Part shown: positions 100 through 53,697 of the stretch, piece after piece
Layout: each line of letters starts with the position of its first letter
Numbering within the stretch: position 1 is the stretch's first letter
Origin: a plasmid
Assembly (NCBI RefSeq): GCF_056746865.1
Contig: NZ_JBWKMP010000003.1
Direction: 5' to 3' (one strand)
DNA length: 64,000 bases
Position numbers and translations under genes: made by a program
The notes under the pieces: model-generated
Databases searched by the model: none
Told to the model about the DNA's origin: nothing
The model's input: only the letters and a program-made list of their open reading frames with translations

Positions 100-1460
100 C
101 GTTAATTAACTGGGAAGCGCATCGAGCTAAGTTCCTGGAGTTAAGAGAAGAAACCGGGATCACCATAAAAGAATATTGCGAGCAGCATGACCTCAGCTTT
201 AACACCGCCAGAAAGCATCTCAATATGAAAAAAAATGAGGTTAAGGCGAAAGCTAAGGCTACCGGGAAAAGTACAAAACAGCGCGCAAAAAGCAGCGCCA
301 CCGGCTCAAAAAAAGAGCAAAAAAAGGCTAATAAAAGCACAGAATTTACAAAAACTGACAAATCGTTGGCTGGTGGACGGTTCCGCGCCATGCCGCAAAA
401 ACAAAATGCGGATCACAAAGAAAAGCCAAGTAATAACAACAAGATACACAAGGATGTGAAGGGATCATTTTGTGATGAAATGGGAGAAATGATCCCTAAA
501 AGCAGCGATAAAGCCCAACGAAACAAGGGATCATTGCAAATGATCCCTGATTCATCAGCTCAAAGCACCACTTTGCCTGCCACCAACGTCGCCCGTGAGA
601 TGATGAAGAACGGCGCGACTGAACATTTACGACTTGCGATACAGATGGCGCAGGAACGAGCAATTCAGTATCAGGCTATCGTTGACCAGGAAGCGGAGCG
701 ACTACAGGAAGAGATTGACGCCCTCGGTGATACACAGCCAGAGGGGATGCACCCAGGGCAGCGTCTTCTCGGACTGATCAGCGATGCGGCCTACTACATG
801 AATGACTTTATCACCAGGCTGGCAGCCATCTATCAGAACGAGCAGAAGCTACGCCAGGGGGATGAAAAACTTGCGCAGGGCGCGCGTCAGCAGGCATTCA
901 GGGAGGCTGAGGCCAGAGAAAAACTGGCGATTGCCCGCCTACAAGCCGAGCAGCGTGGCAAGGAGATTGAGTATCGCATTGGCGCTGACGCACGCGCCGC
1001 CAGGGTTATCGCCGCCGCTATACGTATGCGTGAGCGCGAGGAGCTGGATGATATAGGTGTTGCTGAATATATCGAGCGGCAGGGCGTCAGTGTCCCGGCT
1101 ATCCTGGCGGCACGAGCGGCAAAAGCGATCTCACTTCTGGAGCCTCCGGTTTCTGACGTTAACGATGTTGATGATGAGCAACTGGATAAAGAGGCGAAGC
1201 AGTTTGCCGAGCAACAAGCTGGACTCCCACAATGGCTTGCACAACGCCGGGCTGAAGTAGCGAAAATCGTTGATAGGCTTGGGATGGGGGATTACGACCG
1301 GAACGGAGAACGTAAAGCCGGTGAATTTGAGGCCAATGATGAAGACCTGAATATAGACCCTTCCGCGACGGCTGATATCTACGGTGATTATGACGCGGGG
1401 GATACCGGTTTTGATGCTGTAGATGACGAGATTGCGATAGACCAGCCGGAGGATGACTAA
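96..1460 (+). CDS. pacA: terminase small subunit-like DNA-recognition protein (P1 PacA-like)
   Basis: 454 aa. N-terminal HTH-like stretch (ITIKEYCEQHDLSFNTARKHL), a Lys-rich linker and an acidic C-terminus. Stop overlaps the start of the terminase large subunit (TAATGG). GATC-rich inverted repeats sit in its 5' third, as for pac inside P1 pacA. Confidence 0.55.
   Translation: MTLINWEAHRAKFLELREETGITIKEYCEQHDLSFNTARKHLNMKKNEVKAKAKATGKSTKQRAKSSATGSKKEQKKANKSTEFTKTDKSLAGGRFRAMPQKQNADHKEKPSNNNKIHKDVKGSFCDEMGEMIPKSSDKAQRNKGSLQMIPDSSAQSTTLPATNVAREMMKNGATEHLRLAIQMAQERAIQYQAIVDQEAERLQEEIDALGDTQPEGMHPGQRLLGLISDAAYYMNDFITRLAAIYQNEQKLRQGDEKLAQGARQQAFREAEAREKLAIARLQAEQRGKEIEYRIGADARAARVIAAAIRMREREELDDIGVAEYIERQGVSVPAILAARAAKAISLLEPPVSDVNDVDDEQLDKEAKQFAEQQAGLPQWLAQRRAEVAKIVDRLGMGDYDRNGERKAGEFEANDEDLNIDPSATADIYGDYDAGDTGFDAVDDEIAIDQPEDD
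461..548. other. candidate pac (packaging initiation) site: two inverted pairs of AGGGATCATT / AATGATCCCT, giving 4 GATC Dam sites
   Basis: GATC at 464, 491, 529 and 542. Each pair is a perfect 10-bp inverted repeat, with spacers of 17 and 3 nt. The repeats lie inside the pacA-like ORF, matching P1 pac architecture (clustered TGATCA/G hexamers within pacA). Confidence 0.4.
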
Positions 1461-2968
1461 TGGCTGGTGGTCGTAAGATTAAGTGCGTCACCAGTGATCC
1501 ACGTTGGCGCGATATGGTTATCAGGTATCGATACAACTTTACCCAGGCGGTTGTCGATATTTTTGGGATGTTCCCCTCCCACCAGCAGCAGCAGATCATT
1601 CAGTCAGTGCAGGAGACGGGGAGCAGGACGACCGTTACGTCCGGACACGGAACGGGTAAGTCGTCCCTTACCGCGATGTTGCTACTAATTTTTATGATCC
1701 TGTTCCCCGACGCCCGCGTCATTATTGTTGCGAACAAAATAGGCCAGGTAAAAACAGGCGTATTCAAATACGTGAAACAGTTTTGGGCGAATGCTGTTAA
1801 GCGCCACGGCTGGTTACAGACCTATTTTGTCCTGTCTGACACCATGTTTTATGAGCGTTCCCGTAAAGGGATATGGGAAGTGCTCTGTAAAGGTTATCGA
1901 CTCGGTAACGAAGAGGCACTGGCGGGGGAGCACGCGGAGCATTTACTGCTAATCCTTGATGAAGCATCGGGCATATCCGATAAGGCGATTAACGTCATGA
2001 CGGGGGCGTTAACGCAGAAAGATAACCGTATGCTCATGCTTTCCCAGCCTACGCGTCCAAGCGGTTACTTTTATGAATCTCACCATTCAAGGGCAAAGGC
2101 AGAAGGCAATCCGGAAGGTGTCTGGACGGCAATAGTCCTTAACTCTGAAGAATCACCATTCGTTGAACCGAGCTTTATTCGTGAGAAATTGCTGGAGTAC
2201 GGCGGCAGGGATTCGCTGGAGTACATGGTTAAGGTGCTGGGCCAGTTCCCGCGTGCAATTAACGGGTATTTGCTTGGTCGTGATGAGTGCGACCGCGCCG
2301 CACGGCGTAAAGTGTTGCTGGAGAAAGATTGGGGCTGGGTAGCGACCGCTGACGTCGGTAATGGTCGCGATAAATCGGTGCTCAATATATGCAAAGTATC
2401 CGGTTATCGTGAGAAACGACGCGTTGTGAACTTTAAGATACTGGAGATGCCAGGCACTATGGACCCGTTGGCTTTTGCCGACTTTATCTATAACGAATGC
2501 ACTCCTGATAAATACCCGAACATCACCATTGCTGTGGATGCTGATGGCTTTGGTTCAGATACGTGTGCGCAGCTTGTCCGCCGTGGTGCTAATCCCGTTC
2601 GCATCCGTTGGGGTAAGCCTATGTTTGCGCTAAGAGACAGAGAACGCTTTGTCAATCAGCGTGCTTACGCCAATATTATGGCAGGGGATGCCATTAAATC
2701 CGGGCGTATGCGTATCGATAGTGACCCCAAAACCGCAGATCAGGCATCAAAAATCCCGTATATGCTTAACGAAGAAGGGAAGGTAGCGATGATGCGCAAG
2801 GAGCACATGCGGCAGAAGTTAAACATCAAGTCACCGGACAGATGGGATACCTACTGCTTCACTATGCTGGTGGATTACGTGCCTGCTAATGAAGACATTG
2901 GCGCAGAACTCGCAACATTCCGCGATCAGGTGTTGGCAGAAGTGGATATTCCTGATATTGACATTTAA
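1460..2968 (+). CDS. pacB: terminase large subunit (ATPase plus RNase H-like nuclease; P1 PacB-like)
   Basis: 502 aa. Walker A-like VTSGHGTGKSS and Walker B LLLILDEAS. C-terminal nuclease-type acidic motifs ATADVGNGRD and IAVDADGFGS. Translationally coupled to the upstream TerS-like gene. Confidence 0.8.
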   Translation: MAGGRKIKCVTSDPRWRDMVIRYRYNFTQAVVDIFGMFPSHQQQQIIQSVQETGSRTTVTSGHGTGKSSLTAMLLLIFMILFPDARVIIVANKIGQVKTGVFKYVKQFWANAVKRHGWLQTYFVLSDTMFYERSRKGIWEVLCKGYRLGNEEALAGEHAEHLLLILDEASGISDKAINVMTGALTQKDNRMLMLSQPTRPSGYFYESHHSRAKAEGNPEGVWTAIVLNSEESPFVEPSFIREKLLEYGGRDSLEYMVKVLGQFPRAINGYLLGRDECDRAARRKVLLEKDWGWVATADVGNGRDKSVLNICKVSGYREKRRVVNFKILEMPGTMDPLAFADFIYNECTPDKYPNITIAVDADGFGSDTCAQLVRRGANPVRIRWGKPMFALRDRERFVNQRAYANIMAGDAIKSGRMRIDSDPKTADQASKIPYMLNEEGKVAMMRKEHMRQKLNIKSPDRWDTYCFTMLVDYVPANEDIGAELATFRDQVLAEVDIPDIDI

Positions 2969-3005: not shown

Positions 3006-4044
3006 TTACCAGAGTTTTGCCGCGTACATCGTTTGTGTGAATGTGTACCCATAGCGTTCTTCAACGCTTTTACCGTATTTTTTCCTGGCTTCAGTAAGGC
3101 GGATGCCTGTCAGGTCATCGCCGGAGGCAATCATAACTTCCAGTAGTTCCAGGTCCATTTTATCCAGCCTTGCCATTGCATCTTTAGCCTCTTGAATTTT
3201 CCGGCTAACGATCTGGTGTATGGCTGGATCGGCTTCGGCCAGCATTTTATCTGATTTGTTTTTTAAACTCTGATTGCGGATATCAATGTTTCTCAGGATA
3301 TATGACTTCACGACGTAGCTTGGCTGCTGCTTTTCCAGATCACGAACCCGATAAAGGTCAAATTCGCCGAGAAGTCCGCACGGAAGCGGTTTAATGCCAG
3401 TGTAAATGGTAAGGGTGCGGCGCTCACCAACGTTGTTAACAACGGGAATCTCTGTGTTTGCTTTTTTTGCAAAGATCAGCGCACCGTGCGTACCCACTCT
3501 GAAGCGTGAAAGTCCATTGTTGCCCTCAATATTGGTGGTAATCACCACATCGGTATAACCTTCTTTTCTTGCGCGGTATACCTCGCCCTCACGTTCAGCG
3601 GCGAAGAATCTGCGTTCTTCTTCAAGCGCACCGACAACCTGTGAAAATATCCTGTTTTTCATGCTTTTCTTTATAGTTTTATCGTATTTTTTCAGCAGGT
3701 CTTCGCGCGTAAATGTTCTCGTTGTGGTTGCGCTTTGCATAACGATGTGCGTACTCTGATTAGTATCCTCAACAATGAATGGGATCGGTAAATAAACCGA
3801 CTCAACAATGTTTGAGGCTTTGTCATCATCCTTGCGACACAGATCAACAAAGGCTTTCCATTCGGCTATGCATTTTTCAGCTTCTTCTAATACAGCCGGA
3901 TCATGTGTTAATGCAACATGGCGAAATTCCTCGCCAACATAACTGGTATCATGGAAAACAGAGTTTGCGACCACCAGCTCTTTCCACCTTTCAGCGGTTT
4001 GCAGGAACCGTTTGTACTCATTCTCGATCGACTTCTTACTCATT
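3006..4044 (-). CDS. hypothetical protein; positional analogue of the P1 c1 immunity repressor (function unproven)
   Basis: 346 aa from the MSKKSIENEY start with AGGAATAATG RBS; the longer track ORF lacks an RBS. Lies between pacB and lox-cre on the opposite strand, as c1 does in P1. Its upstream region carries operator-like TTTTCTAACA motifs. No sequence similarity to P1 C1 could be recalled. Confidence 0.5.
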
Positions 4045-4057
4045 ATTCCTACTCGAT

Positions 4058-4075
4058 TTAGTTTTCTAACATAAA
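4058..4075. promoter_or_regulatory. operator-like motif copy (TTTTCTAACA core) upstream of the minus-strand repressor candidate
   Basis: One of about 14 copies of the core ATTTTCTAACA found across 10 intergenic sites. Confidence 0.4.
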
Positions 4076-4145
4076 AGTCCTGTGACAAATTTATGCTGAA
4101 TAACAAGGTGAGTAAAGGATAAAACCGCTTTTTTTTGATTGTTCC

Positions 4146-4238: not shown

Positions 4239-4272
4239 CTAACTTTAAATAATTGGCATTATTTAAAGTTAG
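4239..4272. other. lox-like recombination site (34 bp: 13-bp inverted arms CTAACTTTAAATA, 8-bp spacer ATTGGCAT)
   Basis: Perfect inverted arms (15+4+15, or 13+8+13 in loxP layout). The arm matches the loxP arm ATAACTTCGTATA at 9/13 positions. Sits 150 bp upstream of the Cre gene, as loxP does in P1. Confidence 0.6.
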
Positions 4273-4423: not shown

Positions 4424-5452
4424 ATGGGTGAACTAGTTATCTCCGGCGGTTCTGGTGGTTTTCTGCGCGATATTGGCACCGAATACCAGGAAGCTGCAAA
4501 AAACTTTATGCAGTTCATGAACGACCAGGGAGCTTATGCTCCAAATACGCTTCGAGATCTCCGTCTGGTGTTTCATTCCTGGGCGCGGTGGTGTAATTCG
4601 CGCCAGCGCCCCTGGTTCCCGATTACGCCGGAAATGGCCCGCGAGTATCTTCTCCAGTTGCATGAGGCCGATCTGGCCTCGACCACCATTGATAAGCACT
4701 ATGCCATGCTTAACATGCTGCTTTCGCAATGTGGCCTCCCGCCGCTGTCGGACGATAAAAGTGTGTCTCTGGCCATGCGGCGCATCCGGCGCGAAGCGGC
4801 AACGGAAAAAGGCGAGCGAACAGGCCAGGCTATACCGTTGCGGTGGGATGATCTGAAATTGCTCGACGTGTTGCTGTCCCGTTCCGAGCGGCTGGTGGAC
4901 CTGCGCAATCGGGCGTTTCTCTTCGTGGCATACAATACCCTGATGCGTATGTCAGAAATCTCGCGCATCCGCGTCGGAGATCTGGACCAAACAGGTGACA
5001 CTGTAACGCTGCATATTTCACACACGAAGACCATCACGACCGCCGCCGGACTTGATAAGGTGCTTTCTCGTTACACTACCGCCGTACTGAACGACTGGCT
5101 GGAGGTGTCCGGACTTCGAGAACATCCGGACGCGGTGCTATTCCCGCCAATACACCGCAGTAATAAGGCCAGAATCACGACAACGCCCCTTACTGCACCT
5201 GCAATGGAGAAAATATTCAGCGATGCCTGGGGGTTGCTGAACAAACGAGATGCCACGCCGAACAAAGGAAGATACCGGACGTGGACAGGCCATAGTGCGC
5301 GTGTTGGTGCGGCAATTGATATGGCTGAGAAACAGGTGTCAATGGTCGAGATCATGCAGGAAGGTACATGGAAAAAGCCCGAAACACTTATGCGATATTT
5401 GCGCCGTAGCGGGGCATCCGTTGGTGCAAATAGTCGCCTGATGGACTCATAA
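4424..5452 (+). CDS. cre: Cre-family tyrosine site-specific recombinase
   Basis: 342 aa. Long collinear matches to P1 Cre: LAMRRIRRE, RNRAFLFVAYNTLMRMSEISRIRVGDL, HISHTKT, WTGHSARVGAAIDMA, IMQEGTWKKPETLMRYLR. Catalytic R..HxxR..Y pattern is present. Confidence 0.9.
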   Translation: MGELVISGGSGGFLRDIGTEYQEAAKNFMQFMNDQGAYAPNTLRDLRLVFHSWARWCNSRQRPWFPITPEMAREYLLQLHEADLASTTIDKHYAMLNMLLSQCGLPPLSDDKSVSLAMRRIRREAATEKGERTGQAIPLRWDDLKLLDVLLSRSERLVDLRNRAFLFVAYNTLMRMSEISRIRVGDLDQTGDTVTLHISHTKTITTAAGLDKVLSRYTTAVLNDWLEVSGLREHPDAVLFPPIHRSNKARITTTPLTAPAMEKIFSDAWGLLNKRDATPNKGRYRTWTGHSARVGAAIDMAEKQVSMVEIMQEGTWKKPETLMRYLRRSGASVGANSRLMDS

Positions 5453-7516: not shown

Positions 7517-8323
7517 GTGGAAAATACCAAGAACATTCAATATCGCTTGCGTAACGGCCTGCTGGTGGATGTAAACGATGATATGTCCCTGCCCTTTGCC
7601 ACCATTGAGCGAACCATCCTTACATACCTGGGCTTAGACGAAGAGTTAGATAGTGAGAATGGCATTGCTATCTGGCGTGACGGAAAAACGGGAGTCAGAC
7701 GTTTTATTACGGCAAGAGGCATTCAGTGCACACAGGAAGAATTGTTTGAACTGGCGCAGTCTTATGGATGCATCGCGTTAGATCCCCTGTATGACCCAGC
7801 CATAGCACAACAACTCATTCGAGAGCTGTCGCTTTCGGTCACGCCAATAATCTTCCGCCAGGGAACCTTAACCGGCACATGGCGTGTAGAACGCATCTCT
7901 AAATATCAGCCATATAATATCCATTTGAACGGCACTATTACTGGTGTGGATCAACCAGTAGCAGGTGAAAACAAAGACCTGGAACTTGCAGTAATGATGG
8001 CAGCTTGTCGCGTGCTTGGCCTGGGCAAGCAGATGTTTATCCATTTCCCAAACGGCGCGGAAGGCGAAGTAGAGCTGATTTCCTGCGACTTTTCCTTAAC
8101 CTGGATGCTTGATGAATTCCTGGACAAAACAGTATTCCGTGCTGAAGAACTGGATATGTATGTCACCTCAAGTATTCCTAATGACGTGAAAGTTGAGGCC
8201 ATCGCTACAGCCAGGGCGAAATGCCGTGCGGCGATTGCAGAACAGGCCAAAGAAGAACAGTCCGATGAAGTCGCGGCAGATGTGGAGGCAGAGGTAGCGG
8301 AGGATGCTGATGCTGACGCCTAA
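7517..8323 (+). CDS. hypothetical protein (GTG start, acidic C-terminus)
   Basis: 268 aa. Stop overlaps the start of the TerL-like paralogue by 20 nt. Confidence 0.5.
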   Translation: MENTKNIQYRLRNGLLVDVNDDMSLPFATIERTILTYLGLDEELDSENGIAIWRDGKTGVRRFITARGIQCTQEELFELAQSYGCIALDPLYDPAIAQQLIRELSLSVTPIIFRQGTLTGTWRVERISKYQPYNIHLNGTITGVDQPVAGENKDLELAVMMAACRVLGLGKQMFIHFPNGAEGEVELISCDFSLTWMLDEFLDKTVFRAEELDMYVTSSIPNDVKVEAIATARAKCRAAIAEQAKEEQSDEVAADVEAEVAEDADADA

Positions 8324-9410
8324 AAACATCACCGAATTACCAGAGTGGAGAGAGCTGGTAAGCAAATATAGCCATGACTGGGCATTAGCAGCAGAAGAGT
8401 TGATGGGTGTTAAGTTAACCCACCAGCAAAAGCTAATTGTTGAGGCGATTCAACAAAAAGGTTCAGCAGTCAGCGTCACCACTCCTGAAGGGATAGGCCA
8501 AAAGACGGTTATCGCTATAATTAGTATTCTTTATACAATCCTGATGCCTGAGTCTAAAACGGTTATTGTTTCCCCAAAGTTCTATAATTGTCGCAGGCAA
8601 GTTATCCAATACATAAGTACGTATTGGGATAGAGTCAGTAACAGAATCCCATTGCTGGGAGAATATTTTAAAGTCGACGGAAACGGCATCAATCATCGTT
8701 ACCGGGAATATTGGGGCTGCGAAATTAAGCCATATCACCGAAATTATGAGGAAGGTTTCGGTGGATATTATGCTGAACATCTTTTAATCATTGTTACGGA
8801 GGCGGCTCTTGCTGGCGATCGGCTATTCAGCATGTTAAGAGCATCGTTAGTAAGTGACGATTCACGTATACTTTTAATGTCCGCTCCTTCAGAGGAGGAG
8901 CATGGACACTTTTACGATTCCCATCATGGTCGTGCAAAATCAGAAGAAAATCCATGTGGTATTTATACAGCCATCAAGCTGAACGCAGAAGATACCCCCA
9001 TTATTTCACAAGGTTATCTTGATAACATTGCAGAAATATATGGTGGTAAAAACAGCGATTACTACCGTCGCATGATTCTTGGTGAGTTTCCAGGTATTAG
9101 GGAGGCTGTTCTTGAATCAGATATGCCGAAAACAATGCGCTTTTCGATGCCTGATGGTAGTGAATGGATAATGCCATTACGAGTGATAGCCCGGCATCAT
9201 GCACAGCACCACGCCAAAAAACATGGCGTTACAACATTGGAGTGGTTGAAATCGCACACCATTCCACTCTTCACTGCAGATCACAATGCTATCGTTGAGT
9301 GGGCAAAAACAATTCCGTGGGAGAATGTCGCTGAATACGCCCACATGCTAAAACCGCCGAAAGACAGGCAAGAAATTAGCTGGCTGACAGCAGAAAAAAT
9401 CATTGAGTGA
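8304..9410 (+). CDS. degenerate paralogue of the terminase large-subunit ATPase domain (no nuclease domain)
   Basis: 368 aa, collinear with residues ~40-300 of the pacB product. HQQKLIVEAIQQKGSAVSVTTPEGIGQKT aligns to HQQQQIIQSVQETGSRTTVTSGHGTGKSS, and YYAEHLLIIVTEAALAG aligns to EHAEHLLLILDEASGIS. The Walker A lysine is displaced (GQKT) and the Walker B Asp is replaced by Thr. The C-terminal 120 aa are unrelated to the nuclease domain. Confidence 0.7.
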   Translation: MLMLTPKNITELPEWRELVSKYSHDWALAAEELMGVKLTHQQKLIVEAIQQKGSAVSVTTPEGIGQKTVIAIISILYTILMPESKTVIVSPKFYNCRRQVIQYISTYWDRVSNRIPLLGEYFKVDGNGINHRYREYWGCEIKPYHRNYEEGFGGYYAEHLLIIVTEAALAGDRLFSMLRASLVSDDSRILLMSAPSEEEHGHFYDSHHGRAKSEENPCGIYTAIKLNAEDTPIISQGYLDNIAEIYGGKNSDYYRRMILGEFPGIREAVLESDMPKTMRFSMPDGSEWIMPLRVIARHHAQHHAKKHGVTTLEWLKSHTIPLFTADHNAIVEWAKTIPWENVAEYAHMLKPPKDRQEISWLTAEKIIE

Positions 9411-9445
9411 TAGTAGGAAGCCCGCCTGGTTGAGCGGGCTTCTTT

Positions 9446-9826
9446 TCAAATATTGGAACCATATAGTTCACGTAGTTTATCCGCTACTGAAGATACGGGG
9501 ATTTCACCAGTTGCAGCCCCCACCGCAAGTTCCACCAGCACGGGAGAATCATATACCTGTATACCGTTACGGCGTAGAAATAGCAGCGCACTGTTTAGCG
9601 CGGTACGCTTATTGGCATCATTGAATATATGCCCTCTCGCTGTAGCCACCAGGTAGGTGGCGGAGACTTCGAAAAGGTCGGTGATCTCTTCGTAGGCAAC
9701 TCTGGCCTGAACTCTCCCGATAATGGCCTCTGCCCTGCCCGGATCTGACATGCCAGGCAGGCCGCCGTAGCGGCTTATATTCGCATCATGAAGCGCAATA
9801 AGTTCTTCCGGTGATATATGCCTCAT
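9446..9826 (-). CDS. doc: Doc toxin (Fic/Doc family), P1 death-on-curing
   Basis: 126 aa, essentially identical over its length to P1 Doc as remembered ([39 protein letters not shown]...). Confidence 0.95.
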
Positions 9827-10053
9827 TATCGGTTAACCAGTTCCTTGTTGGTGGAGTCCAGGGTGTCAAACAGGGATGCAAATTCAGCATCCAGCGCCGC
9901 TTTTTTGTAGGCTTCGAAAGTAGCCTTGCTGACAATTACTGCTGGCTCACGGCCTCTGCGGGTGATTTCAACCTCTTCCCCGGCTTCAACATTGTTGAGC
10001 ACTTCAGAAAGGTTGCCACGCGCGGTACGGAAGTTAATGGATTGCATAAACAC
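9826..10053 (-). CDS. phd: Phd antitoxin
   Basis: 73 aa beginning [39 protein letters not shown], matching P1 Phd. Stop and start overlap with doc. Confidence 0.95.
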
Positions 10054-10119
10054 CTCGTGTACTCGTTATGTGTACACAATTATAAACTTCACAGGCATAA
10101 AGCACCAGCACTTTGCAGC

Positions 10120-10509
10120 TTAAATAACCGGACAATCATCAAATTCCCCACTTCGGGCATCATTGATGACATGAGTGATCACACCAAAAACAGCATTACT
10201 GCCCGTGTATCCATCGTCATCTACTGGTAACGCCTCTTTCTTCCCGGTGCTTAAGTCCTCCAGGTGCTGGCGCGGATACTTCCTGTATCTCTTTATGCGA
10301 TATTCACCCTCCATAGCGCACACAAGCAGAGAACCATCAACCGGAGTAAGCGAGGAATCAACCACCAGCAAAGCACCCTGCAATATTCCCTCACGGTGAT
10401 GGCTATCAGCTGCCCGCATGAAGTAGGTCGCTGAAGGATGTCTAATTATCTGCTGATCAAGAGAAATTCGGCTTTCAACATAATCCGCCGCAGGAGAAGG
10501 GAAGCCCAT
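10120..10509 (-). CDS. humD: UmuD'-like S24 peptidase-fold protein (P1 HumD)
   Basis: 129 aa with a LexA/UmuD C-terminal domain (catalytic Ser/Lys spacing) and no N-terminal cleavage arm. humD-phd-doc order is as in P1. Confidence 0.8.
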   Translation of the reverse strand: MGFPSPAADYVESRISLDQQIIRHPSATYFMRAADSHHREGILQGALLVVDSSLTPVDGSLLVCAMEGEYRIKRYRKYPRQHLEDLSTGKKEALPVDDDGYTGSNAVFGVITHVINDARSGEFDDCPVI

Positions 10510-10632
10510 AGCGTTTTACCTCAATGATACTGTTTATTCATACAGTATACATTGAAAAGGCATAGTTTGTGAAAGCGGGGTTTGTAGGCGCGCCACGCTG
10601 GGGGCTAATCACATTTCTCCCCCATCTTGCCG

Positions 10633-10884
10633 TTATTTTTTTGGTGCATCCTCGTTCTGATACACCGGATCGCTCCCTTTTGGCAACTGGAGGCTTAACT
10701 GCCGATAGTGCCGTAACCGTTCCATGAAATAGGTGCGCAGATTCTCTGGTTGCTCGCGGGCTACCTGTTCAGCTATGACAGGTATGTTCAATCGCTCTTT
10801 GTACGCCACACCGCTGGCAGCCAGATCAACGTTAACCTTATCCCGTTCTTCCTGACTTTTAGCTGCAATATTCCAGTCGCTCAT
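10633..10884 (-). CDS. hypothetical protein
   Basis: 83-aa ORF at the distal end of the long leftward operon. Confidence 0.45.
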
Positions 10885-10886
10885 AT

Positions 10887-11159
10887 TTAAGGCTCACATT
10901 TCCAGATGGTATTCTGAACACCCGAACCGGGCGCAAGATTAGGGTTGGCGTTCGCGCTATGCTGATATACTGCTTTAGACTTCCCATATTGCTGACAGGC
11001 TTTATCTGCGGTTTTTTGCAGGCTATCCAGGCCATACCAACCATCTGACTGTATGCTTACCTTTTCACCGTCGTTGTATTGCACCATTGCACACCCAGAT
11101 ATAGCCAGTATCGCACCGACAATAACGCTTTTCCATAAAACTCTATGCAACATATACAA
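10887..11159 (-). CDS. lipoprotein (signal peptide plus lipobox AISGC)
   Basis: 90 aa. N-terminus [21 protein letters not shown] has the typical SPII signal. Confidence 0.6.
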
Positions 11160-11198
11160 AAATCCCCTCTGTGAATTGAGGGGATTTTAGCATGGTGA

Positions 11199-11834
11199 TC
11201 AGATATCGGCCTTATTCGGAATTTTATCAGCCACCAGCGGCAATAAAGCCTTCGCCATTTCATGAACCAACATGGCATCAATGACGCCTAGCGTATGGCC
11301 CGGTTTAATGTTTAATGCCGCCTCAAGATGACTCCTTTCCAGGCCGCTTTTCTCGGCTTGTTTATGACGATCTGGTGTAATAACTTCGCCCAAAACGCGG
11401 CTAATTTTTTCTCGTAATTGCTGGGTGCCAGCACACTTGATCGCTGTATCGTGGAGACGGTTAACCAGTTCGCGATAAACATGCGGCTTAATGCGGATAC
11501 GTTCACCGGTGACGCCCTTTCCTGGCGCTGGCACCGAACTATCCGGATAGTTGCCAGCCTCGTAAGCTACCCGCAGCCAGTGCATGAATGTTTCAGTGGA
11601 CACACAACCACAGTCCACATCGATTTTTCCGCGTTGCTGTTCCAGCCACTGCTCAAAATTCAATCTACACGTATTACTTTCATGTTGCTCTTTTTGTCTC
11701 AAGGCCAGCATCTGCTGGGCTATTTCCAATACTTCATCTGCCGTATATCCAGCACCGTGACCATACATTTCGATACGGGAAATAATCTCTGATATACGCT
11801 CTTCAGTGATTCTGGTCATTTCTTTTTGCGCCAT
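11199..11834 (-). CDS. hypothetical protein sharing a ~40-aa module with the DUF4406 protein at 23758..24369
   Basis: 211 aa. KPHVYRELVNRLHDTAIKCAGTQQLREKISRVL resembles APHIYRELVNALRDIAAVYHGTEQLRERLAHTI. Confidence 0.55.
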   Translation of the reverse strand: MAQKEMTRITEERISEIISRIEMYGHGAGYTADEVLEIAQQMLALRQKEQHESNTCRLNFEQWLEQQRGKIDVDCGCVSTETFMHWLRVAYEAGNYPDSSVPAPGKGVTGERIRIKPHVYRELVNRLHDTAIKCAGTQQLREKISRVLGEVITPDRHKQAEKSGLERSHLEAALNIKPGHTLGVIDAMLVHEMAKALLPLVADKIPNKADI

Positions 11835-12187
11835 TTCTTTTCACATTCCTTAGTCCATTTTTCAATGTTCATTTTGGCAATATCAGTCATTCCATCACCT
11901 AAGAAATACTTTTTCCGGTATGTCTTGCACTTAAACCACACTACAACAGCCACCAGCCAGAAAATAAAAGGCCATACAGCAATACCAACGACAGCCGCGA
12001 TAAAGCCCAATAGCCATAAATGAAGCTCTCCAACTTCTGTTTCCGGCAATATTCTTAAAGAATTAAACAGCAGGCTGAACGAATGGTCGTATGCATTGGC
12101 GGTATAAGACATGCAATCCATATAATTAAAGTCATAGCCTGCGGCTGCCGCCCATAATGGGCGGTCAAGAAAATGTTTTAGTGTCAT
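11816..12187 (-). CDS. small membrane protein
   Basis: 123 aa with two hydrophobic helices (WLLGFIAAVVGIAVWPFIFWLVAVVVWF). Confidence 0.45.
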   Translation of the reverse strand: MTLKHFLDRPLWAAAAGYDFNYMDCMSYTANAYDHSFSLLFNSLRILPETEVGELHLWLLGFIAAVVGIAVWPFIFWLVAVVVWFKCKTYRKKYFLGDGMTDIAKMNIEKWTKECEKKWRKKK

Positions 12188-12196
12188 TATATAAAT

Positions 12197-12490
12197 TTAA
12201 GGTTCAGACCAGTTATCTTCAATAGCAATGCTTAATCTTTGTAGCCATTCTGCTAATTTCAGCATTGCTTCTCTTTCGCTTAAACCACGAGGAAAATCAT
12301 CAAGCGAAATTGTTGGCTTGAATCCCCCGCAATTATCCATTTCAACTGTCAGATTTTGTTCCAGCACGGTATTTCTTACGCGGCTATTGTGCCGAAGCAA
12401 ATATACTGAGCGTGATTTATTGGTTTTGTGGTCTAGCTTATATTCGGTAAGTATCATCTGGCTTTTGCCATGATTATTACCTCTCCACAT
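12197..12490 (-). CDS. hypothetical protein
   Basis: 98 aa from MWRGNN, with GAGGT RBS 4 nt upstream. Confidence 0.4.
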   Translation of the reverse strand: MWRGNNHGKSQMILTEYKLDHKTNKSRSVYLLRHNSRVRNTVLEQNLTVEMDNCGGFKPTISLDDFPRGLSEREAMLKLAEWLQRLSIAIEDNWSEP

Positions 12491-12497
12491 ACTTACC

Positions 12498-12620
12498 TCA
12501 CTTAATAAAACAACTCCATGCGTAGTTGATGATTTTTTCCCACGTAATATAAATCTGCACTCCGGCAGTAAAACCAAAGCCAACAATTGCTGAAAAAATC
12601 AAAACATTTACTTTTGACAT
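12498..12620 (-). CDS. small hydrophobic peptide (40 aa)
   Basis: MSKVNVLIFSAIVGFGFTAGVQIYITWEKIINYAWSCFIK. Not in the ORF track because it is under 60 aa. Confidence 0.25.
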   Translation of the reverse strand: MSKVNVLIFSAIVGFGFTAGVQIYITWEKIINYAWSCFIK

Positions 12621-12668
12621 TATAAATTTTCTCTCGGTGTCGTAGGTGATAGCACCATAATTGATAAT

Positions 12669-12902
12669 TTAGTGAGTTAGCAGTTCCATTTTTTTGATGA
12701 TTTCCGCATGAGCATCATCGTTATCAACACTTAGCTCGTTTAATGCTTCTCGCACTACATCAACTTCTTCAGGCTGAAAGAAGTCGTCGCGGTAATCACC
12801 AAATAGAACCGAAACCAGCCTGCCACCAGCAACATCAAGATTGGCGCTAACAGGTGGCTCTTTGCCATCCTCAAATTCGACTACAAAAGTTAATTTTCCC
12901 AT
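12669..12902 (-). CDS. hypothetical acidic protein
   Basis: 77-aa ORF. Confidence 0.45.
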   Translation of the reverse strand: MGKLTFVVEFEDGKEPPVSANLDVAGGRLVSVLFGDYRDDFFQPEEVDVVREALNELSVDNDDAHAEIIKKMELLTH

Positions 12903-12978
12903 CGTTACCCCCAGAAGATAAAAATAGCGGCAATCGCCATAGCTACGCCTACAATCGCAAATGCTTCAGGCCAGCTTA

Positions 12979-13239
12979 TTACCTCACCTCCAGTCTCCAT
13001 ACCGCCTGACCAATCCGGCTGGCATGGGTATCTTTGGATACTGTTCCATCTTTAGCCAGCTCCATAAGAATTTTGCGCAAATCTGCCGAACGCCATTCTT
13101 CATCAGGAAATTCCTTCTCCATTGCCAACCGCAGATTCCAGGTTGCTATCGTGAATGGATATTCCCCGCCGAGAGCTTTCTCTTGCAGGGCAGCACGGGA
13201 ACGTATCACCTGCAAAACCTTCTCTTTTACATCCATCAT
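12979..13239 (-). CDS. hypothetical protein
   Basis: 86 aa from MMDVKEK. This start gives an ATGA overlap with the upstream gene; the longer track ORF would overlap it by 76 nt. Confidence 0.4.
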   Translation of the reverse strand: MMDVKEKVLQVIRSRAALQEKALGGEYPFTIATWNLRLAMEKEFPDEEWRSADLRKILMELAKDGTVSKDTHASRIGQAVWRLEVR

Positions 13240-13934
13240 TTTGCCTCCTGCGGCGGTTCTGGTAGCGGCATCCAGTGTGATGGTATCCACGACGCACCAG
13301 GTATTACCCACCCATCATTAGCGTCAGGATGCCCCGGGATGTAAGTCGCCCATTTCATTCGCCAGTCACCTTTCCTGTCAAACTCCCTGGCAACAAGAAC
13401 GGCTGTTTTGGTATCCGGCATTCGCTCACTACAGCTTATCCAACTATCCGGAATTACCGGATAGTTGCCCGACAGCTTGTTCAACTTGTAAGTCTGGCTT
13501 ACAGGTTTGGCACCATGAAGCATGGCGTCGCTCCGCTCTATGCCATCCAGCGCGATTCGCAGTGCCTGAATTGTGGTAGAGCTATCGTTTGGGGCTATTC
13601 CATATCGCTCGAATACAGCTAAATGGTTGCGCATAATCTCAGGCGTAAGCTCTTTGTAAGCATAAGCAAGAGACTCTGATGCATTATCCGGCACAACCGA
13701 CGCAAGCGCGGCAGCATAAACAGGAATAACGTCCACTTGCTCTTTATTGCTTTCATCCGTTAAAGCCCAGAATAATTTCCCGGCCGGATGTTTGAAAATA
13801 TAAGCAATTGGTTCTGCTTCCAGCGATGCCAGAGCAATTTCATACGACCGTCGCTCAATATTGTCTCGCACGTCCAGGCTGCTGATACGCTCTTTGATTT
13901 CTTTAATCAGTTCTTTGTCGGTTAAAGTGGTCAT
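13236..13934 (-). CDS. DUF551-like C-terminal domain protein (lambdoid accessory type)
   Basis: 232 aa. C-terminus GWVIPGASWIPSHWMPLPEPPQ fits the DUF551 W-x-LP-PP signature. Confidence 0.5.
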   Translation of the reverse strand: MTTLTDKELIKEIKERISSLDVRDNIERRSYEIALASLEAEPIAYIFKHPAGKLFWALTDESNKEQVDVIPVYAAALASVVPDNASESLAYAYKELTPEIMRNHLAVFERYGIAPNDSSTTIQALRIALDGIERSDAMLHGAKPVSQTYKLNKLSGNYPVIPDSWISCSERMPDTKTAVLVAREFDRKGDWRMKWATYIPGHPDANDGWVIPGASWIPSHWMPLPEPPQEAK

Positions 13935-13944
13935 AAATTATGCC

Positions 13945-14181
13945 TCAGTTGTATCCGATTGGATTAACCGCAACAAGAACGCCATCCGCGAACAAATCTT
14001 TAATGAGGTGTTCGCTCGGCTCGCCTTTTTCGTACTCTTCAATAAGGTAAGTGTCTCCATCTTCATTGATATAAACAGGAAGGATGGAGCCGTTGATAAA
14101 GTAGGTTCCGTTGTTATCGAGGATTTTTGCCTCGGCGATTTGTTTTTTGGTAAAACGCTCTTCTTTTGTCAAAGTTGCCAT
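13945..14181 (-). CDS. hypothetical protein
   Basis: 78 aa from MATLTKEER, with AGGAAAG RBS. Confidence 0.45.
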   Translation of the reverse strand: MATLTKEERFTKKQIAEAKILDNNGTYFINGSILPVYINEDGDTYLIEEYEKGEPSEHLIKDLFADGVLVAVNPIGYN

Positions 14182-14182
14182 A

Positions 14183-14401
14183 TCAGCTTTCCTTATATGG
14201 GTTGATTTTGTTGTGCAATGTGTTGAACGACGCCCATACCACGTCGTTATACAATTCAATAACTGGCTCAATTATTTTCCCGATTCCCCATACCAGAATT
14301 AACGGGGATATCGGTATCATCAACACGATAAACAGAATGAGAAACAGAAATTCTGTTATTCGGCTTCTTTGCGGATATTCTTTTCTGAATAATGTTGGCA
14401 C
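14183..14401 (-). CDS. small membrane protein (GTG start)
   Basis: 72 aa. AAGGAGAGTGATGTG junction with the upstream gene. Hydrophobic core FLFLILFIVLMIPISPLILVWGI. Confidence 0.4.
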   Translation of the reverse strand: MPTLFRKEYPQRSRITEFLFLILFIVLMIPISPLILVWGIGKIIEPVIELYNDVVWASFNTLHNKINPYKES

Positions 14402-14402
14402 A

Positions 14403-14624
14403 TCACTCTCCTTTGCCCGCAGCTTTCGCCTGCTCTTTAGCAAGTCGCTCCGCTTCTCTGAAATCCCAATCCACTCGATGTGCGATATCAATTGCAGAAC
14501 GCACGGTTCGTTCAATTAGCGTATCCAGGTTATCAATTGTCATTGCCATATCTGGATTTCGAGATAAAATCTCCGCCCTCTGAATCTGCCAGTTGTTACA
14601 GGTTTCAAGTAATGAGTTAGCCAT
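14403..14624 (-). CDS. hypothetical protein
   Basis: 73 aa from MANSLLETC, with AAGGAGAGTGATATG RBS/junction. Confidence 0.45.
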   Translation of the reverse strand: MANSLLETCNNWQIQRAEILSRNPDMAMTIDNLDTLIERTVRSAIDIAHRVDWDFREAERLAKEQAKAAGKGE

Positions 14625-14625
14625 A

Positions 14626-14814
14626 TCACTCTCCTTTAGTGCGCAAGTGGTTTTTCCAGCGGTTTTGCGCCGCGCTGGGCTTTTTGCAAAAACCACAATC
14701 CATCATCCCGTAATATTTCATCAACCCCATCCGTCGGTTGCTGAGTCTCACCCACTGCCAGACGCCAGGAGCGTTTCTACGAACTAACAGAATCTTTGCT
14801 TTACGGTTTTTCAT
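14626..14814 (-). CDS. small basic protein (MKNRKAK...), third of a tandem trio
   Basis: 62 aa. Its start region is duplicated 173 bp upstream. Confidence 0.3.
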   Translation of the reverse strand: MKNRKAKILLVRRNAPGVWQWVRLSNRRMGLMKYYGMMDCGFCKKPSAAQNRWKNHLRTKGE

Positions 14815-14987
14815 CTTACAGCGTACCCTTTCTTCCGCCTGTTCTGTGACGCAGTAGGCTTACGCTTTGCGGCAAAAGCCACCTGACCAAATGGATGGAG
14901 TACCGCTATCTTATGGTTGCTAATAACCAGCTCCACCACACGCACAGGTCGCTGTAAAAAAAGTCGTTTTGCCTTACGGTTTTTCAT
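14811..14987 (-). CDS. small basic protein (MKNRKAKRLF...), paralogue of 14626..14814
   Basis: 58 aa. Stop overlaps the next start (ATGA). Below the ORF-track length cutoff. Confidence 0.3.
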   Translation of the reverse strand: MKNRKAKRLFLQRPVRVVELVISNHKIAVLHPFGQVAFAAKRKPTASQNRRKKGYAVR

Positions 14988-15160
14988 CGCTTTGCTCTCC
15001 TGCGTCTCTTTGCTGCTCGTCGTGCCGCTGCAATACCGGTATGGCGGCGCTTTGGTGCCGGGATGATGTTGTCAGCCATCAGGACATACGGCTTTGCAAT
15101 TAGCGCAGAAGCCCAAAAACGAGTCGGGTACGGTAACAAGCCGATACATGCCACACGCAT
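14984..15160 (-). CDS. small Arg-rich basic protein (MRVACIGLLPYP...AARRAAKRRRRAKR)
   Basis: 58 aa. TAATG overlap with the upstream gene and ATGA overlap with the downstream gene. Confidence 0.3.
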   Translation of the reverse strand: MRVACIGLLPYPTRFWASALIAKPYVLMADNIIPAPKRRHTGIAAARRAAKRRRRAKR

Positions 15161-15912
15161 TACTCACCTCCTTTGATGCGAATGCCTGCGGCGCGGATTG
15201 CAGCGATGACTTCAGAAACTTTGTATGCCATTACCGTTTGGTAATCATCGTGAAAATCTGTTCGATGAAGCATGCTGCTACGTTCCGGGAGCGATATTTC
15301 CCGAGCATCCAGTTCCTTAACGCGTTCCTCCAGTTCGTAGACCCTGCATTGTTCTCTATCATCAATCAGATATACCCCAAGACATTCGCTTTCTACCCAA
15401 CCGCCAAAATCATGATCGTAACGCTCACATGAAAACTCACCGTCACCGTCCTTTGTTGGAATGGTGTAACTATCTAATGGGCCACCATATGTCGGCACAT
15501 TTCCCAATGTTGGATGCTCAATCCACATGAAAAATGCACGTCCGGTTATTGGGCAAATATCTGGCCGCCATTGGTTACGAACAGCCTTGGTTTCGGATAA
15601 TTCTTCAGCGTGTTGTTTTACTTCCTCAAGCTCAACTCTCAGCTTCCCTACCGTTAGCGCAATATCCTCGTTCTCCTGATCGCGGCGTTTTATGTATTGC
15701 TGGTTTCTTTCCCGTTCATCCAGCAGCGCCAGCACGGTTTCTGGTCCGGTCAGAAATTTGAAGGCGTTGAGCGCATCAATATCCACACCGTAATCTTTAA
15801 GTTCCTGTTCACTTAACAAATCATCATCAGCTGGCAACATTAACAGGCGTTCCATTGCTGGAATTGCACGTTCCGCCGCCTCACGCAGTGCCTGGTAATT
15901 AATTTCGCTCAC
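15160..15912 (-). CDS. Ead/Ea22-like mosaic protein, family A (ends [10 protein letters not shown])
   Basis: 250 aa. Shares a 37-aa identical block ([36 protein letters not shown]) and about 100 bp of near-identical DNA with 22074..22748. Confidence 0.55.
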   Translation of the reverse strand: MSEINYQALREAAERAIPAMERLLMLPADDDLLSEQELKDYGVDIDALNAFKFLTGPETVLALLDERERNQQYIKRRDQENEDIALTVGKLRVELEEVKQHAEELSETKAVRNQWRPDICPITGRAFFMWIEHPTLGNVPTYGGPLDSYTIPTKDGDGEFSCERYDHDFGGWVESECLGVYLIDDREQCRVYELEERVKELDAREISLPERSSMLHRTDFHDDYQTVMAYKVSEVIAAIRAAGIRIKGGE

Positions 15913-35911: not shown

Positions 35912-35956
35912 CAAAACTGTGTTAGATAATTGAGTTTTATTTTCTAACACAGTTTT
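35912..35956. promoter_or_regulatory. 15-bp perfect inverted repeat CAAAACTGTGTTAGA...TCTAACACAGTTTTG carrying the TCTAACA operator motif
   Basis: 15-nt spacer; sits directly upstream of rdgC. Confidence 0.45.
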
Positions 35957-35963
35957 GCGAAAC

Positions 35964-36869
35964 ATGAGATTAGTCGCCTTTAAAAACATATACGTCTATC
36001 GCCTTGCCCGCGAAATTAAACTGGACTCAACCACCGTTAGTGATGCCTTAAGCCAATTCACATTCACTCCATGCGCATCACAAGAAATGGCAAAAGTCGG
36101 ATGGGTGCCGGTTCTGGCTGACAACCTGATCCATGAATACCACGGTTTTCTACTTCTCCAGCAACAGCGAGAAATTAAGCTCCTGCCCTCTCATGTCATT
36201 AAGGAGGAAGTGCAGAAAAAAGTGGAAAAGCTCGAAAATGAGCAATCTCGTAAGCTGAAGAAGTCGGAAAAAAACACCCTGAAGGATGAAGTTCTCCACT
36301 CTTTGTTGCCTCGCGCATTCACTCGCAAATCATTGTCGCGAATCCTTATTGATCGCGACAACTATCTGGTCTTCGTAGAAGCTTCCAGCGCCAGAAAAGC
36401 AGAAGAAATGCTGGCGCTCTTACGTAAATCACTTGGCAGCCTGCCAGTGATTCCATTCACGCCGATAGAACCGCTCGAAATGACTATGACCGAATGGTTC
36501 AAGTCAACATTTCCTCAAGGCTTTAAAGCAGGCGAAGAAGCCATATTGAAATCTCTGTTCGATGACGGCGGCGCAGTTCGTTGCAAGAAAGTAGACCTAC
36601 AGTCAGAGGAAATAATGACTCATATTGAAGCCGGAAAAGTTGCAACAACAGTTGCAATCAACTGGCAGGACCGCGCGACCTTCAGGTTAAACGATGACAT
36701 GAGCATCAAAGCACTGACGTTTTGCGATGATCTCTATGACCAGAACGATGACATCGACCGTGAAGATGTTGCCCAGCGATTTGATGCTGACTTCATTCTG
36801 TTCACAAGCGAATTATCCGCGATGTTTAGCTCGCTGGTGGAGGCCATTGGCGGTGAAGCAGAGCATTAA
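35964..36869 (+). CDS. rdgC: recombination-associated protein RdgC
   Basis: 301 aa, collinear with E. coli RdgC: FKNxxVYRL, FTPCxSQxMAKxGWVP, KLLPSxVIKQ, KLKKxEKxxLKDEVLHSLLPRAF, ALLRKSLGSLPVxP, EDIDREDxAQRFDADFIL. Confidence 0.85.
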   Translation: MRLVAFKNIYVYRLAREIKLDSTTVSDALSQFTFTPCASQEMAKVGWVPVLADNLIHEYHGFLLLQQQREIKLLPSHVIKEEVQKKVEKLENEQSRKLKKSEKNTLKDEVLHSLLPRAFTRKSLSRILIDRDNYLVFVEASSARKAEEMLALLRKSLGSLPVIPFTPIEPLEMTMTEWFKSTFPQGFKAGEEAILKSLFDDGGAVRCKKVDLQSEEIMTHIEAGKVATTVAINWQDRATFRLNDDMSIKALTFCDDLYDQNDDIDREDVAQRFDADFILFTSELSAMFSSLVEAIGGEAEH

Positions 36870-37533
36870 TAACCGACCGCTGGCGGTGAGTCTTTGTGAT
36901 TATACAGGGAATATGGTTTCCCCCTGGCTGGAACACGGCATTGATGCAGTCATTGTCGATCCGCAACACCAGGAGTCCGGCAGCCAATTGATGGAGTCAG
37001 GTGCTGTACTCACACGTATCAGCGCAATTATTGACAGTGATGAGGTCTACAATTTCCTTCGGAAAAATTTGCACAGAGTTGTATTTTTAGCCGGTTTCCC
37101 TCCATGTACTGACCTGGCTGTATCTGGCGCACGCTGGTTCGCAGATAAAGCAAAAAAAGATCCGGTTTTCCAGTTCAAAGCAATGCAGGTTGTCTGGCAG
37201 TGTTACGACATTGCAAAGATGATTGGTTGCCCGTACATGATTGAAAACCCGGTCAGCCAAATATCGACATTCTGGCGTAAACCTGATCACATATTCCATC
37301 CTTATCACTTCACTGCATATTGCAAGGAAGACAATTACACCAAAAAAACATGCCTGTGGAGCGGACAAGGATTCATCATGCCAACTCCGCGAATCGACAA
37401 GTCGTTAGGTGATCCAGATAACCGAATACACAAGGCACCGCCAGGGCCTGAAAGAGCGAATTTTCGTAGCGCGACACCTTACGGTTTTGCAAGAGCTGTA
37501 TTTGAAGCAAATAAGGAGGGAATCCGTGGCTGA
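36850..37533 (+). CDS. short C5-cytosine DNA methyltransferase-like protein
   Basis: 227 aa from a GTG start with GGAGG RBS. Motif I-like LCDYTGNM, PC motif LAGFPPCTDLAVSG, ENV-like MIENPVSQ. No target-recognition domain is apparent. Confidence 0.45.
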   Translation, partial: AVKQSINNRPLAVSLCDYTGNMVSPWLEHGIDAVIVDPQHQESGSQLMESGAVLTRISAIIDSDEVYNFLRKNLHRVVFLAGFPPCTDLAVSGARWFADKAKKDPVFQFKAMQVVWQCYDIAKMIGCPYMIENPVSQISTFWRKPDHIFHPYHFTAYCKEDNYTKKTCLWSGQGFIMPTPRIDKSLGDPDNRIHKAPPGPERANFRSATPYGFARAVFEANKEGIRG

Positions 37534-38274
37534 TATTGGTGCTAAATTTATTTCTTATAGCGACAATCATCGTCCTGCGGCGGAAGCCACTATCAGCCAT
37601 ATGCGACGTATTCGCTCGGAGGACGAATTTGATCGCCCAGTCTTTAAGTGGGTCGGCGGCAAATTTTCTGCACTGCCCATTATCTTCGAACACCTGCCCC
37701 ACGGAAAACGGTTGATAGAACCTTTCGTTGGAGGTGGCGCTGTTTTCACTAATGCCGGATTTAAAAGCAACCTGCTGAACGATATCAATAATGACCTGAT
37801 TAACTTCTATCAGACATTGCAGCGTGAAGGGCATTCTCTTATCACACTGGCATATCGTTTTTTTCAGGATTACAACTCTGCTGATGCATTTTTGAATGTT
37901 CGCAATGCATTCAACAATGGTGCTTATGATTCCCTTCACCATGCAGCGGCGTTCCTGTATCTCAATCGTCATTGTTTTAATGGCGTCACTCGCTATAACC
38001 GTAAAGGAGAGTTCAACGTCGGATATGGAAAGCAGAAATCACCCCACTTCCCTCTCGCGGAAATGGAGGCGTTCCTGGCTGACGATATTTCAAAGTATTC
38101 GGAATTTGTGTCCGGCGATTTTGCTGGTGTAATTGAGGCTGCCGGGAATGATGATGTGATTTTCTGCGATCCCCCCTATGAACCATTGCCTGACACTACC
38201 GGATTTACAAATTACTCAGGGCATAGCTTTAGGTTTGAAGATCAACAACGGCTGGTGTCACTGCTGGTGGATGC
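37527..38274 (+). pseudogene. Dam-like N6-adenine DNA methyltransferase, 5' portion, interrupted by IS2
   Basis: GTG start after AAGGAGG. FKWVGGKF (Dam LKWAGGK-like motif I) and DPPY (motif IV). The frame is broken at the IS2 junction after ...LLVDA. Confidence 0.7.
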
Positions 38275-38285
38275 TGGATTTGCCC

Positions 38286-39191: not shown

Positions 39192-39514
39192 TTTTTTGCA
39201 CGCCCGTATTCAACGGCTTCTTTAAGGAGTTCATTTTCCATCGTTTTTTTGCCGAGCAGGCGCTGGAGTTCTTTAATCTGCTTCATGGCAGCAGCAAGTT
39301 CAGAGGCAGGAACGACCTGCTCTCCTGCGGCCACAGCAGTAAGACTTCCCTCCTGGTATTGCTTGCGCCAGAGAAATAACTGGCTGGCTGCCACACCGTG
39401 TTGCCGGGCAACAAGGGAGACCGTCATTCCCGGTTCAAAACTCTGCTGAACAATAGCGATCTTTTCCTGTGTAGTACGCCGTCTGCGTTTCTCCGGTCCT
39501 AAGACATCAATCAT
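39149..39514 (-). CDS. insC: IS2 InsC (orfA; HTH)
   Basis: 121 aa beginning [41 protein letters not shown]... Confidence 0.9.
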
Positions 39515-39605
39515 CTGCTCTCCAATGACTAGTCTAAAAACTAGTATTAAGACTATCACTTATTTAAGTGATATTGGTTGTCTGGAGATTCAGGGGGCCA
39601 GTCTA

Positions 39606-53664: not shown

Positions 53665-53697
53665 AACCCTGTGTGATCCTTCAAATGGTGAGGGCAA

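Follow-up and report, generated by a model that had tools for sequence, protein, structure and literature searches.

The 64,000-nucleotide stretch of plasmid DNA analysed here (the window; contig NZ_JBWKMP010000003.1) is assigned by its sequence to the D6-like phage-plasmids, or plasmid-prophages, about 30 kb of the element lying outside it. The window begins in the 3' part of an lpa-like gene, which is followed on the plus strand by a pacA-like gene (96-1460, an open reading frame (ORF) of 1365 nucleotides (nt) encoding 454 amino acids (aa)), which would specify the small DNA-recognition subunit of the pacase, and by a pacB-like gene (1460-2968, plus strand, 502 aa) for the large terminase subunit (TerL), the presumed nuclease/ATPase that cuts at pac. 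Inside the pacA-like gene lies a compact cluster of short GATC-bearing repeats (approximately 408-548), and we conclude that this cluster is probably the pac recognition site, at which packaging of the element would be initiated.

The identity of the two genes is supported by several comparisons. The product of ORF 96-1460 is 74% identical in amino-acid sequence to PacA of phage D6, matches phrog_1711 'terminase' (E 2e-167) along with the small-terminase phrogs 370 and 51, and can be aligned over its full length with P1 PacA, at 20% identity (E 5e-8). The PacB-like product matches phrog_2, terminase large subunit (E 4e-41), and weakly Terminase_6N, and the pacB annotation of D6 agrees. Both pacase subunits are accordingly classed as homologs of PacA and PacB of the P1-group terminase. 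Neither Pfam nor NCBIfam holds a model matching PacA, and no related solved structure was found in the PDB. In an AlphaFold (AF2) model built from a 15-sequence alignment, of low overall confidence (pTM 0.29) and used solely for its confident N-terminal helices and its disordered linker, residues 6-42 form a predicted three-helix bundle with a helix-turn-helix (pLDDT ~85), residues 49-159 (pLDDT below 50) a basic disordered linker, and long coiled-coil helices occur elsewhere. Given this low pLDDT, the repeats appear to sit in DNA encoding a disordered linker, where little constraint on the protein is expected. Throughout the family the recognition helix reads NTARKHLN with almost no variation, where P1 PacA has NTARRYLR; this fits one DNA motif across the D6 family and another in P1. 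In public assemblies many PacA proteins are annotated as N-terminally truncated or frameshifted, for example a 326-aa form starting MAKMIP (P0011, P0024, P0012).

The cluster contains four perfect copies of one repeat. The forward form AAGGGATCATT stands at 459-469 (copy 1, encoding KGSF) and 525-535 (copy 3, KGSL), and its reverse complement AAATGATCCCT is read on the plus strand at 487-497 (copy 2, EMIP) and 538-548 (copy 4, QMIP), the last being the most conserved copy across the family. They are arranged as two inverted pairs whose arms are separated by 16 nt and 3 nt, and each copy carries one GATC (463, 491, 529, and 542). Upstream, a further plus-strand element, GCGGATCACA (408-417, GATC at 411; GCGGATCAC), has GGATCA at 410-415. 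This hexamer is invariant across the D6 clade, and the element is probably a weaker fifth repeat of the same site. The four repeats occupy pacA nt 364-453, or 27-33% of the way along the ORF (nt 313-453 with the fifth element), and span 89 base pairs (bp), the five elements together ~140 bp; the longest gap among the four is 28 bp. The first-pass annotation had described four GATC-bearing copies arranged as two inverted pairs in the 5' third of a pacA-like gene, and both the arrangement, recovered at 459-548 by the repeat search, and the PacA-like nature of the surrounding ORF were upheld.

A search of both strands of the window found the exact 10-mer AGGGATCATT in four copies, all of them within the cluster, against an expectation of 0.06, and four copies were reached in 0 of 100 dinucleotide-preserving shuffles. 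The clustering of GATC by itself is unremarkable: four GATCs within 83 bp make the densest such group in the window, the runner-up taking 154 bp, at P ~0.4, and the tetranucleotide is slightly under-represented overall (218 versus 244 expected). Thus the non-random feature is the 10-11-mer and not the density of GATC.

Comparison with relatives suggests that this feature is maintained as DNA. In a codon alignment of nine D6-clade representatives (70-97% nucleotide identity), conservation of pacA is lowest in the segment for aa 48-160. Within it, 28 of 32 positions of the motif core are invariant, compared with 105 of 306 in the remaining linker (Fisher p 5e-9), and so are 15 of the 16 GATC core positions and the upstream GGATCA; phage D6 retains all five GATC elements. 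The peptide encoded by the motif is not kept with it. All three reading frames are used among relatives (GDH, KGSF, and EGII in the forward orientation; NDP, KRSP, and MIP in the reverse), and in D6 the encoded Lys-Gly has become Arg-Arg while GATCATT is preserved. The use of three frames, this D6 substitution, and the predicted disorder of the segment together argue strongly for selection on the DNA rather than on the peptide.

As a negative control we considered the second-densest GATC cluster of the window (52415-52568, four in 154 bp), located at the 3' end of the tail-tube gene. Only one of the four GATCs is retained in D6, even though sequence conservation across that region is higher overall.

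The same pattern extends far beyond the D6 clade. A profile search of genome contigs with the PacA alignment found no relatives; loci assembled from IMG/VR, Logan, NCBI, and JGI and by exact-protein look-ups represent ten clades, with PacA identity down to 33%. In these clades pacA nt 100-560 holds 4-8 GATCs, which are three to five times as dense there as in the flanking 4-5 kb, and the motif occurs in both orientations in every PacA relative. Alignment of 57 oriented sites gives the consensus 5'-RGGGATC(A/T)TTT-3', with G at -1 in 52 and T at +5 in 50 of them. The full GG-GATC-W-TT context is found at 54% of the pacA sites and at none of the other 176 GATCs of those loci (p 3e-23, a value that takes no account of shared ancestry), and at one of 213 GATCs elsewhere in the window. 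A k-mer count that did not presuppose GATC ranked GGGATC/GATCCC first, with at least two copies in 10 of 10 clades and 16-fold enrichment. The motif is limited to pacA in all relatives examined, and in a close relative whose 92.8 kb were scanned in full the 8-mers cluster there alone.

The arrangement of the copies varies in the more distant relatives (33-56% PacA identity), which come from Klebsiella, Enterobacter, Raoultella, and metagenomes. In five of them (L038-L042) the motif forms two blocks, at pacA nt 157-240 and 370-500, about 140-170 bp apart, a layout nearer to that of P1; another (L035) has copies at nt 142-226 and one at 327. The upstream block has no positional homolog in the clade of the window, which points to turnover of the repeats.

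Starting from the observed repeats, their conservation at the DNA level, their recurrence throughout the family, the gene context, and an insertion in the methylase gene of the element described below, we infer the following scheme for the binding of PacA, the position of cleavage, the direction of packaging, and the role of methylation. During lytic growth the N-terminal helix-turn-helix of PacA would bind the asymmetric GATC-centered repeats, here arranged as convergent pairs, and recruit PacB, which would cut in or beside the cluster. Headful packaging would then run rightward through pacB and c1 toward the recombination site rox, ~3.7 kb from the repeats, and the terminally redundant packaged DNA would be circularised by the recombinase Dre at rox. 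Adenine methylation of the GATC cores would gate cleavage as in P1, fully methylated sites being cut and hemimethylated ones bound and left uncut; we give this gating roughly an even chance. A more speculative extension, which we regard as doubtful, starts from the asymmetry of the motif: unlike with the palindromic TGATCA among the P1 hexamers, PacA could distinguish the new strand of a hemimethylated site from the old one. Pacases of the D6 type reading an orientation-specific 10-mer might then operate a strand- and orientation-aware methylation switch, and loss of the phage Dam methylase, such as the insertion in this element would cause, would shift the element to a packaging-poor, plasmid-only lifestyle.

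Several observations weigh against assigning pac to this cluster. Because the relatives share ancestry, counts made across them are not independent observations. Some relatives (L037, L026, L031) have lost single copies, and none of the copies is therefore individually indispensable. In place of the TGATCA/G hexamer of P1 there is an asymmetric 10-11-mer: neither TGATCA nor TGATCG occurs within 400-560, where all five elements read TGATCC or GGATCA. Nor is there in the D6 clade any evident counterpart of the two-cluster P1 layout with its long spacer in the middle; the clade of the window has one compact block and one upstream element. No match to the integration host factor (IHF) consensus WATCAANNNNTTR with at most one mismatch was found in pacA nt 1-620, although the same scan recovers the P1 site; the consensus is a weak predictor. 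Literature searches yielded no experimental mapping of packaged ends for D6 or any relative, and pac is annotated in neither GenBank record of D6 (MF356679 / AY753669). A D6 pac site is described in none of the texts returned by full-text searching, an earlier mention in the primary D6 papers being possible. Finally, the dependence on Dam is argued purely by analogy. Public assemblies were also considered as a source of physical ends, and the candidates, N-terminally truncated PacA loci (L046, L047), were rejected as internal to long contigs. One draft contig (L030, IMGVR_UViG_2537562191_000021) starts at pacA nt 320, just past the upstream GGATC; this could be a real DNA end or an accident of assembly, and as a single case it was not used as evidence.

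Four other explanations of the cluster were weighed. The first is that it forms a regulatory element sensitive to Dam and SeqA, in which SeqA bound to hemimethylated GATCs, or modulation of a promoter, couples expression of pacA and pacB or another process to replication, while packaging starts elsewhere. The five GATCs within 135 bp, the densest cluster of the window, are in line with this, as is the conservation of the motif, which is highest in its GATC core. However, SeqA and Dam need nothing but GATC, whereas the flanking GG and WTT are conserved family-wide and absent at other GATCs, and such conserved flanks point to a sequence-specific binder. Moreover, a promoter scan found no sigma-70-like promoter on the sense strand of 1-1600 or near the repeats, and the position of the cluster mirrors that of P1 pac. 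We consider this explanation unlikely.

According to the second explanation, the inverted repeats act as hairpins in RNA or single-stranded DNA, influencing translation or stability of the pacA mRNA or, in the case of the 526-548 hairpin, terminating antisense transcription. In the window, D6, and L037 the 105-nt segment does fold better than its shuffles (z -3.6 to -4.7), and the minus-strand hairpin 548-526 with its T-rich tail was flagged as terminator-like, but inverted repeats fold well automatically. Pairing partners vary among relatives, and substitutions are not compensatory: copy 1 of D6 has GGAG where pairing with copy 2 needs GGGG, and its copy 3 has TTCA where ATTG is needed. In distant relatives unpaired copies occur in the same orientation, and arm spacings range over 13-63 nt. 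It is the motif that is conserved and not the helix, which leaves a structural role highly unlikely.

The third possibility, that the repeats bind some other protein unrelated to packaging (for example a nucleoid protein of the host, a factor for partition or replication, or the C1-like repressor), draws on the fact that many DNA-binding sites typically consist of 10-11-bp motifs repeated in either orientation. Against it stand the confinement of the motif to pacA in every relative, the location of the iterons and partition genes elsewhere, with other repeats, and the circumstance that small-terminase genes commonly hold their own pac site (established in P1; P22 and SPP1 are further examples). 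Such a role seems very improbable. The last explanation, chance or a repeated peptide KGS[FL] / [EQ]MIP selected at the protein level, could appeal to the copies being mutually in frame in this gene (spacings 66 and 51 nt), but is effectively refuted by the shuffles and by relatives that keep the motif in other frames and with other residues, in a segment predicted to be disordered and otherwise evolving freely. A pac site recognised by PacA thus remains the reading we favor.

The methylase gene of the element has been interrupted. The 5' part of a Dam-family gene (codons 1-249, with the motifs FxGxG and DPPY) occupies 37526-38274 on the plus strand, and the last 56 codons lie at 39611-39779, also on the plus strand; between them is a 1331-bp insertion (38275-39605, minus strand), which carries on the minus strand an InsD-like gene (38286-39191, 301 aa, rve) and an InsC-like gene (39149-39559, 136 aa, HTH_Tnp_1). 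The insertion is more than 99% identical to IS3-family (IS2) copies in thousands of records and is identified as IS2, a member of the IS3 family. It is flanked by a perfect 5-bp target duplication, GATGC, at 38270-38274 and 39606-39610. The ORF covering the 5' part (37409-38446) contains the D12-class methyltransferase domain (PF02086, E 7.5e-49) before running into IS2. Removal of IS2 and one GATGC copy in silico restores a 305-aa protein that is 100% identical (916 of 918 nt) to the intact 'Dam family' gene product of NZ_LR890273.1, exceeds the cut-off of TIGR00571 (231.6 versus 114.85 bits), and matches structures of E. coli Dam (E ~1e-51). The gene is intact in close relatives, and in the window its frame is broken after codon 249; since the last 56 residues are removed, the truncated enzyme is very probably dead. 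The junction of IS2 and dam is absent from PLSDB plasmids and from 5,426 complete E. coli genomes, so the lesion is judged recent and private to this element.

The claim of the first-pass annotation that a dam-like gene had been split by IS2 is therefore confirmed by the ORFs, the target duplication, and the reconstruction. Its further statement that this is the only dam-like gene holds for the 64 kb that can be checked, where this is the sole ORF of at least 100 aa with a [DNS]PP[YFWH] motif; in relatives, the ~30 kb corresponding to the part outside the window encode a DarB-like protein of 2278 aa and carry no second Dam annotation. With its own gene destroyed, this copy of the element would depend on Dam of the host alone, a plausible inference by analogy with P1 that would have little consequence in a normally Dam+ E. 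coli host; the loss might at most lower the methylation capacity late in lytic growth. Directly upstream of the Dam-family gene and overlapping it, preceded by an RdgC gene (35955-36869), is an ORF (36727-37533) that matches phrog_757 'DNA methyltransferase' (E 4e-78). No Pfam or NCBIfam match was found for it, and RefSeq calls it 'hypothetical' in relatives; judged by eye, its sequence FPPCTDLAVSG looks like motif IV of cytosine-C5 methyltransferases.

The first-pass annotation had also assumed a GATC-rich origin of replication (oriR), which would likewise be subject to Dam, and this was not supported. The predicted initiator gene repB (52909-53697, minus strand, RepB family) is flanked on either side, at 52618-52912 and 53687-53813, by iterons of ~17-22 bp whose repeat unit, TGAGGGCAAATCTTACA, contains no GATC, and the replicon is assigned to the typical iteron (RepB) type. 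The nearby GATC cluster, the 52415-52568 segment used above as a control, has P1-like ACGTGATCA copies, three of which read ACGTGATC(A/G) like the hexamers of P1 pac. As a candidate for either pac or oriR it was rejected: it is tail-tube coding sequence whose GATCs are not conserved in D6, and is probably a product of chance.

Further to the right of pacB, the window contains a C1-like repressor ORF (3006-4106, minus strand), a 32-bp rox site identical to that of D6 (4240-4271), and a gene for a 342-aa tyrosine recombinase (4424-5452, plus strand) with 94% amino-acid identity to D6 Dre. From the identity of rox and the similarity of the recombinase, the element is taken to recombine via Dre/rox and not Cre/lox. 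In a comparison with PLSDB, 130 plasmids were matched. The first 3 kb of the window are 99.5-99.9% identical to six non-mobilizable plasmids of 90-94 kb from E. coli and E. marmotae, and 98% identical to a seventh; identity to phage D6 and to some 120 D6-like plasmids is ~80%. In NZ_CP085065.1, a relative with 99.9% identity, phd/doc is followed by hsdM/S/R, an operon for type I restriction-modification (L003, 29178-35258). In the corresponding stretch of the window (~8300-15300) there are no ORFs of such sizes, and the difference is thus a swap of accessory genes between near-identical elements.

A methylation-gated pac site inside pacA is textbook knowledge for P1 and will not surprise a specialist; what seems new is a distinct repeat shared throughout the D6 lineage, useful for packaging tools based on D6 and for the comparative study of methylation-gated packaging. 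If confirmed, it would define the pac signal for a whole lineage that is frequent in Escherichia, Salmonella, Klebsiella, and Enterobacter of clinical and animal origin, provide a pac cassette of 90-140 bp for D6-based phagemids and transduction tools without cross-reaction with P1, and allow one to predict which chromosomal and plasmid sequences are mis-packaged by D6-like phages from pseudo-pac sites. It would also offer a second independent system in which to study the gating of packaging by adenine methylation. The IS2 insertion in dam matters only for packaging in this isolate under Dam-limited conditions.

The location of pac within the gene of the small terminase subunit has precedents outside the P1 group. 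In P22 gene 3, SPP1 gene 1, and Sf6 the site lies in the small-terminase gene and starts unidirectional headful packaging; these sites are not known to be GATC-based or gated by methylation, and the small subunits (TerS) are unrelated in sequence. The closest known system is D6 itself, of which the window represents a sister clade (~80% nucleotide identity over the 3-kb pac region, ~75% over pacA alone). Both have the same five GATC elements at the same positions of pacA (nt 316, 368, 396, 434, and 447), the same repeat family, rox, and Dre; the four main copies are perfect in the window, whereas copies 1 and 3 of D6 are degenerate (GGAGATCATT and GGGATCTTCA). D6-like plasmid prophages occur in Escherichia, Salmonella, Klebsiella, and Enterobacter. 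A survey of phage-plasmids described a D6-like subgroup with pacB homologs only, lacking pacA (PMC7969092). By our alignments the subgroup does have pacA, in a highly diverged form, which corrects the impression left by that survey.

For P1, the site was reportedly characterised in work by Sternberg and Coulby and by Skorupski, Sauer, and Sternberg. In the annotated P1 record the cleavage points of pac lie at pacA nt ~276-285 (the gene being 1194 nt long), with an IHF site beside the cuts, four TGATCA hexamers at nt 195-229, and three to four TGATCA/G at nt 325-376 (HEX4 and HEX3). The site comprises ~161 bp with seven hexamers, Dam methylation gates its cleavage, and packaging falls ~9-fold when the hexamers are recoded synonymously (PMC10028697); the methylase of P1 itself, dmt, is required in Dam- hosts (PMC12707154). 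The background on P1 given in the first-pass annotation agrees with these two papers. Its proposal of a P1-style pac site stands as regards a Dam-methylatable, pac-like cluster inside pacA, with well-supported selection at the DNA level and the gene context of P1, and fails as regards the hexamers. The differences from P1 also include the convergent inverted pairs, the spacing (five elements in ~140 bp and four in 89 bp, versus seven in ~161 bp in two blocks), and the divergence of the two PacA proteins to 20% identity; moreover, cleavage and methylation dependence are documented in P1 and predicted by analogy for the site in the window. On the other hand, both systems use several short repeats, each with a Dam GATC and with the pentamer TGATC in common on one strand, and in both these lie within the 5' third of the pacA gene, in the part for the linker that directly follows the N-terminal helix-turn-helix. 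The order lpa-pacA-pacB-c1-rox-dre of the window is that of D6 and also of P1, the latter with its own recombination site and recombinase, and the recombination site lies downstream at a similar distance, ~4.0 kb from pac to lox in P1 and 3.7 kb from the repeats to rox here. Finally, the element of the window, like P1, carries a Dam-family methylase gene of its own.

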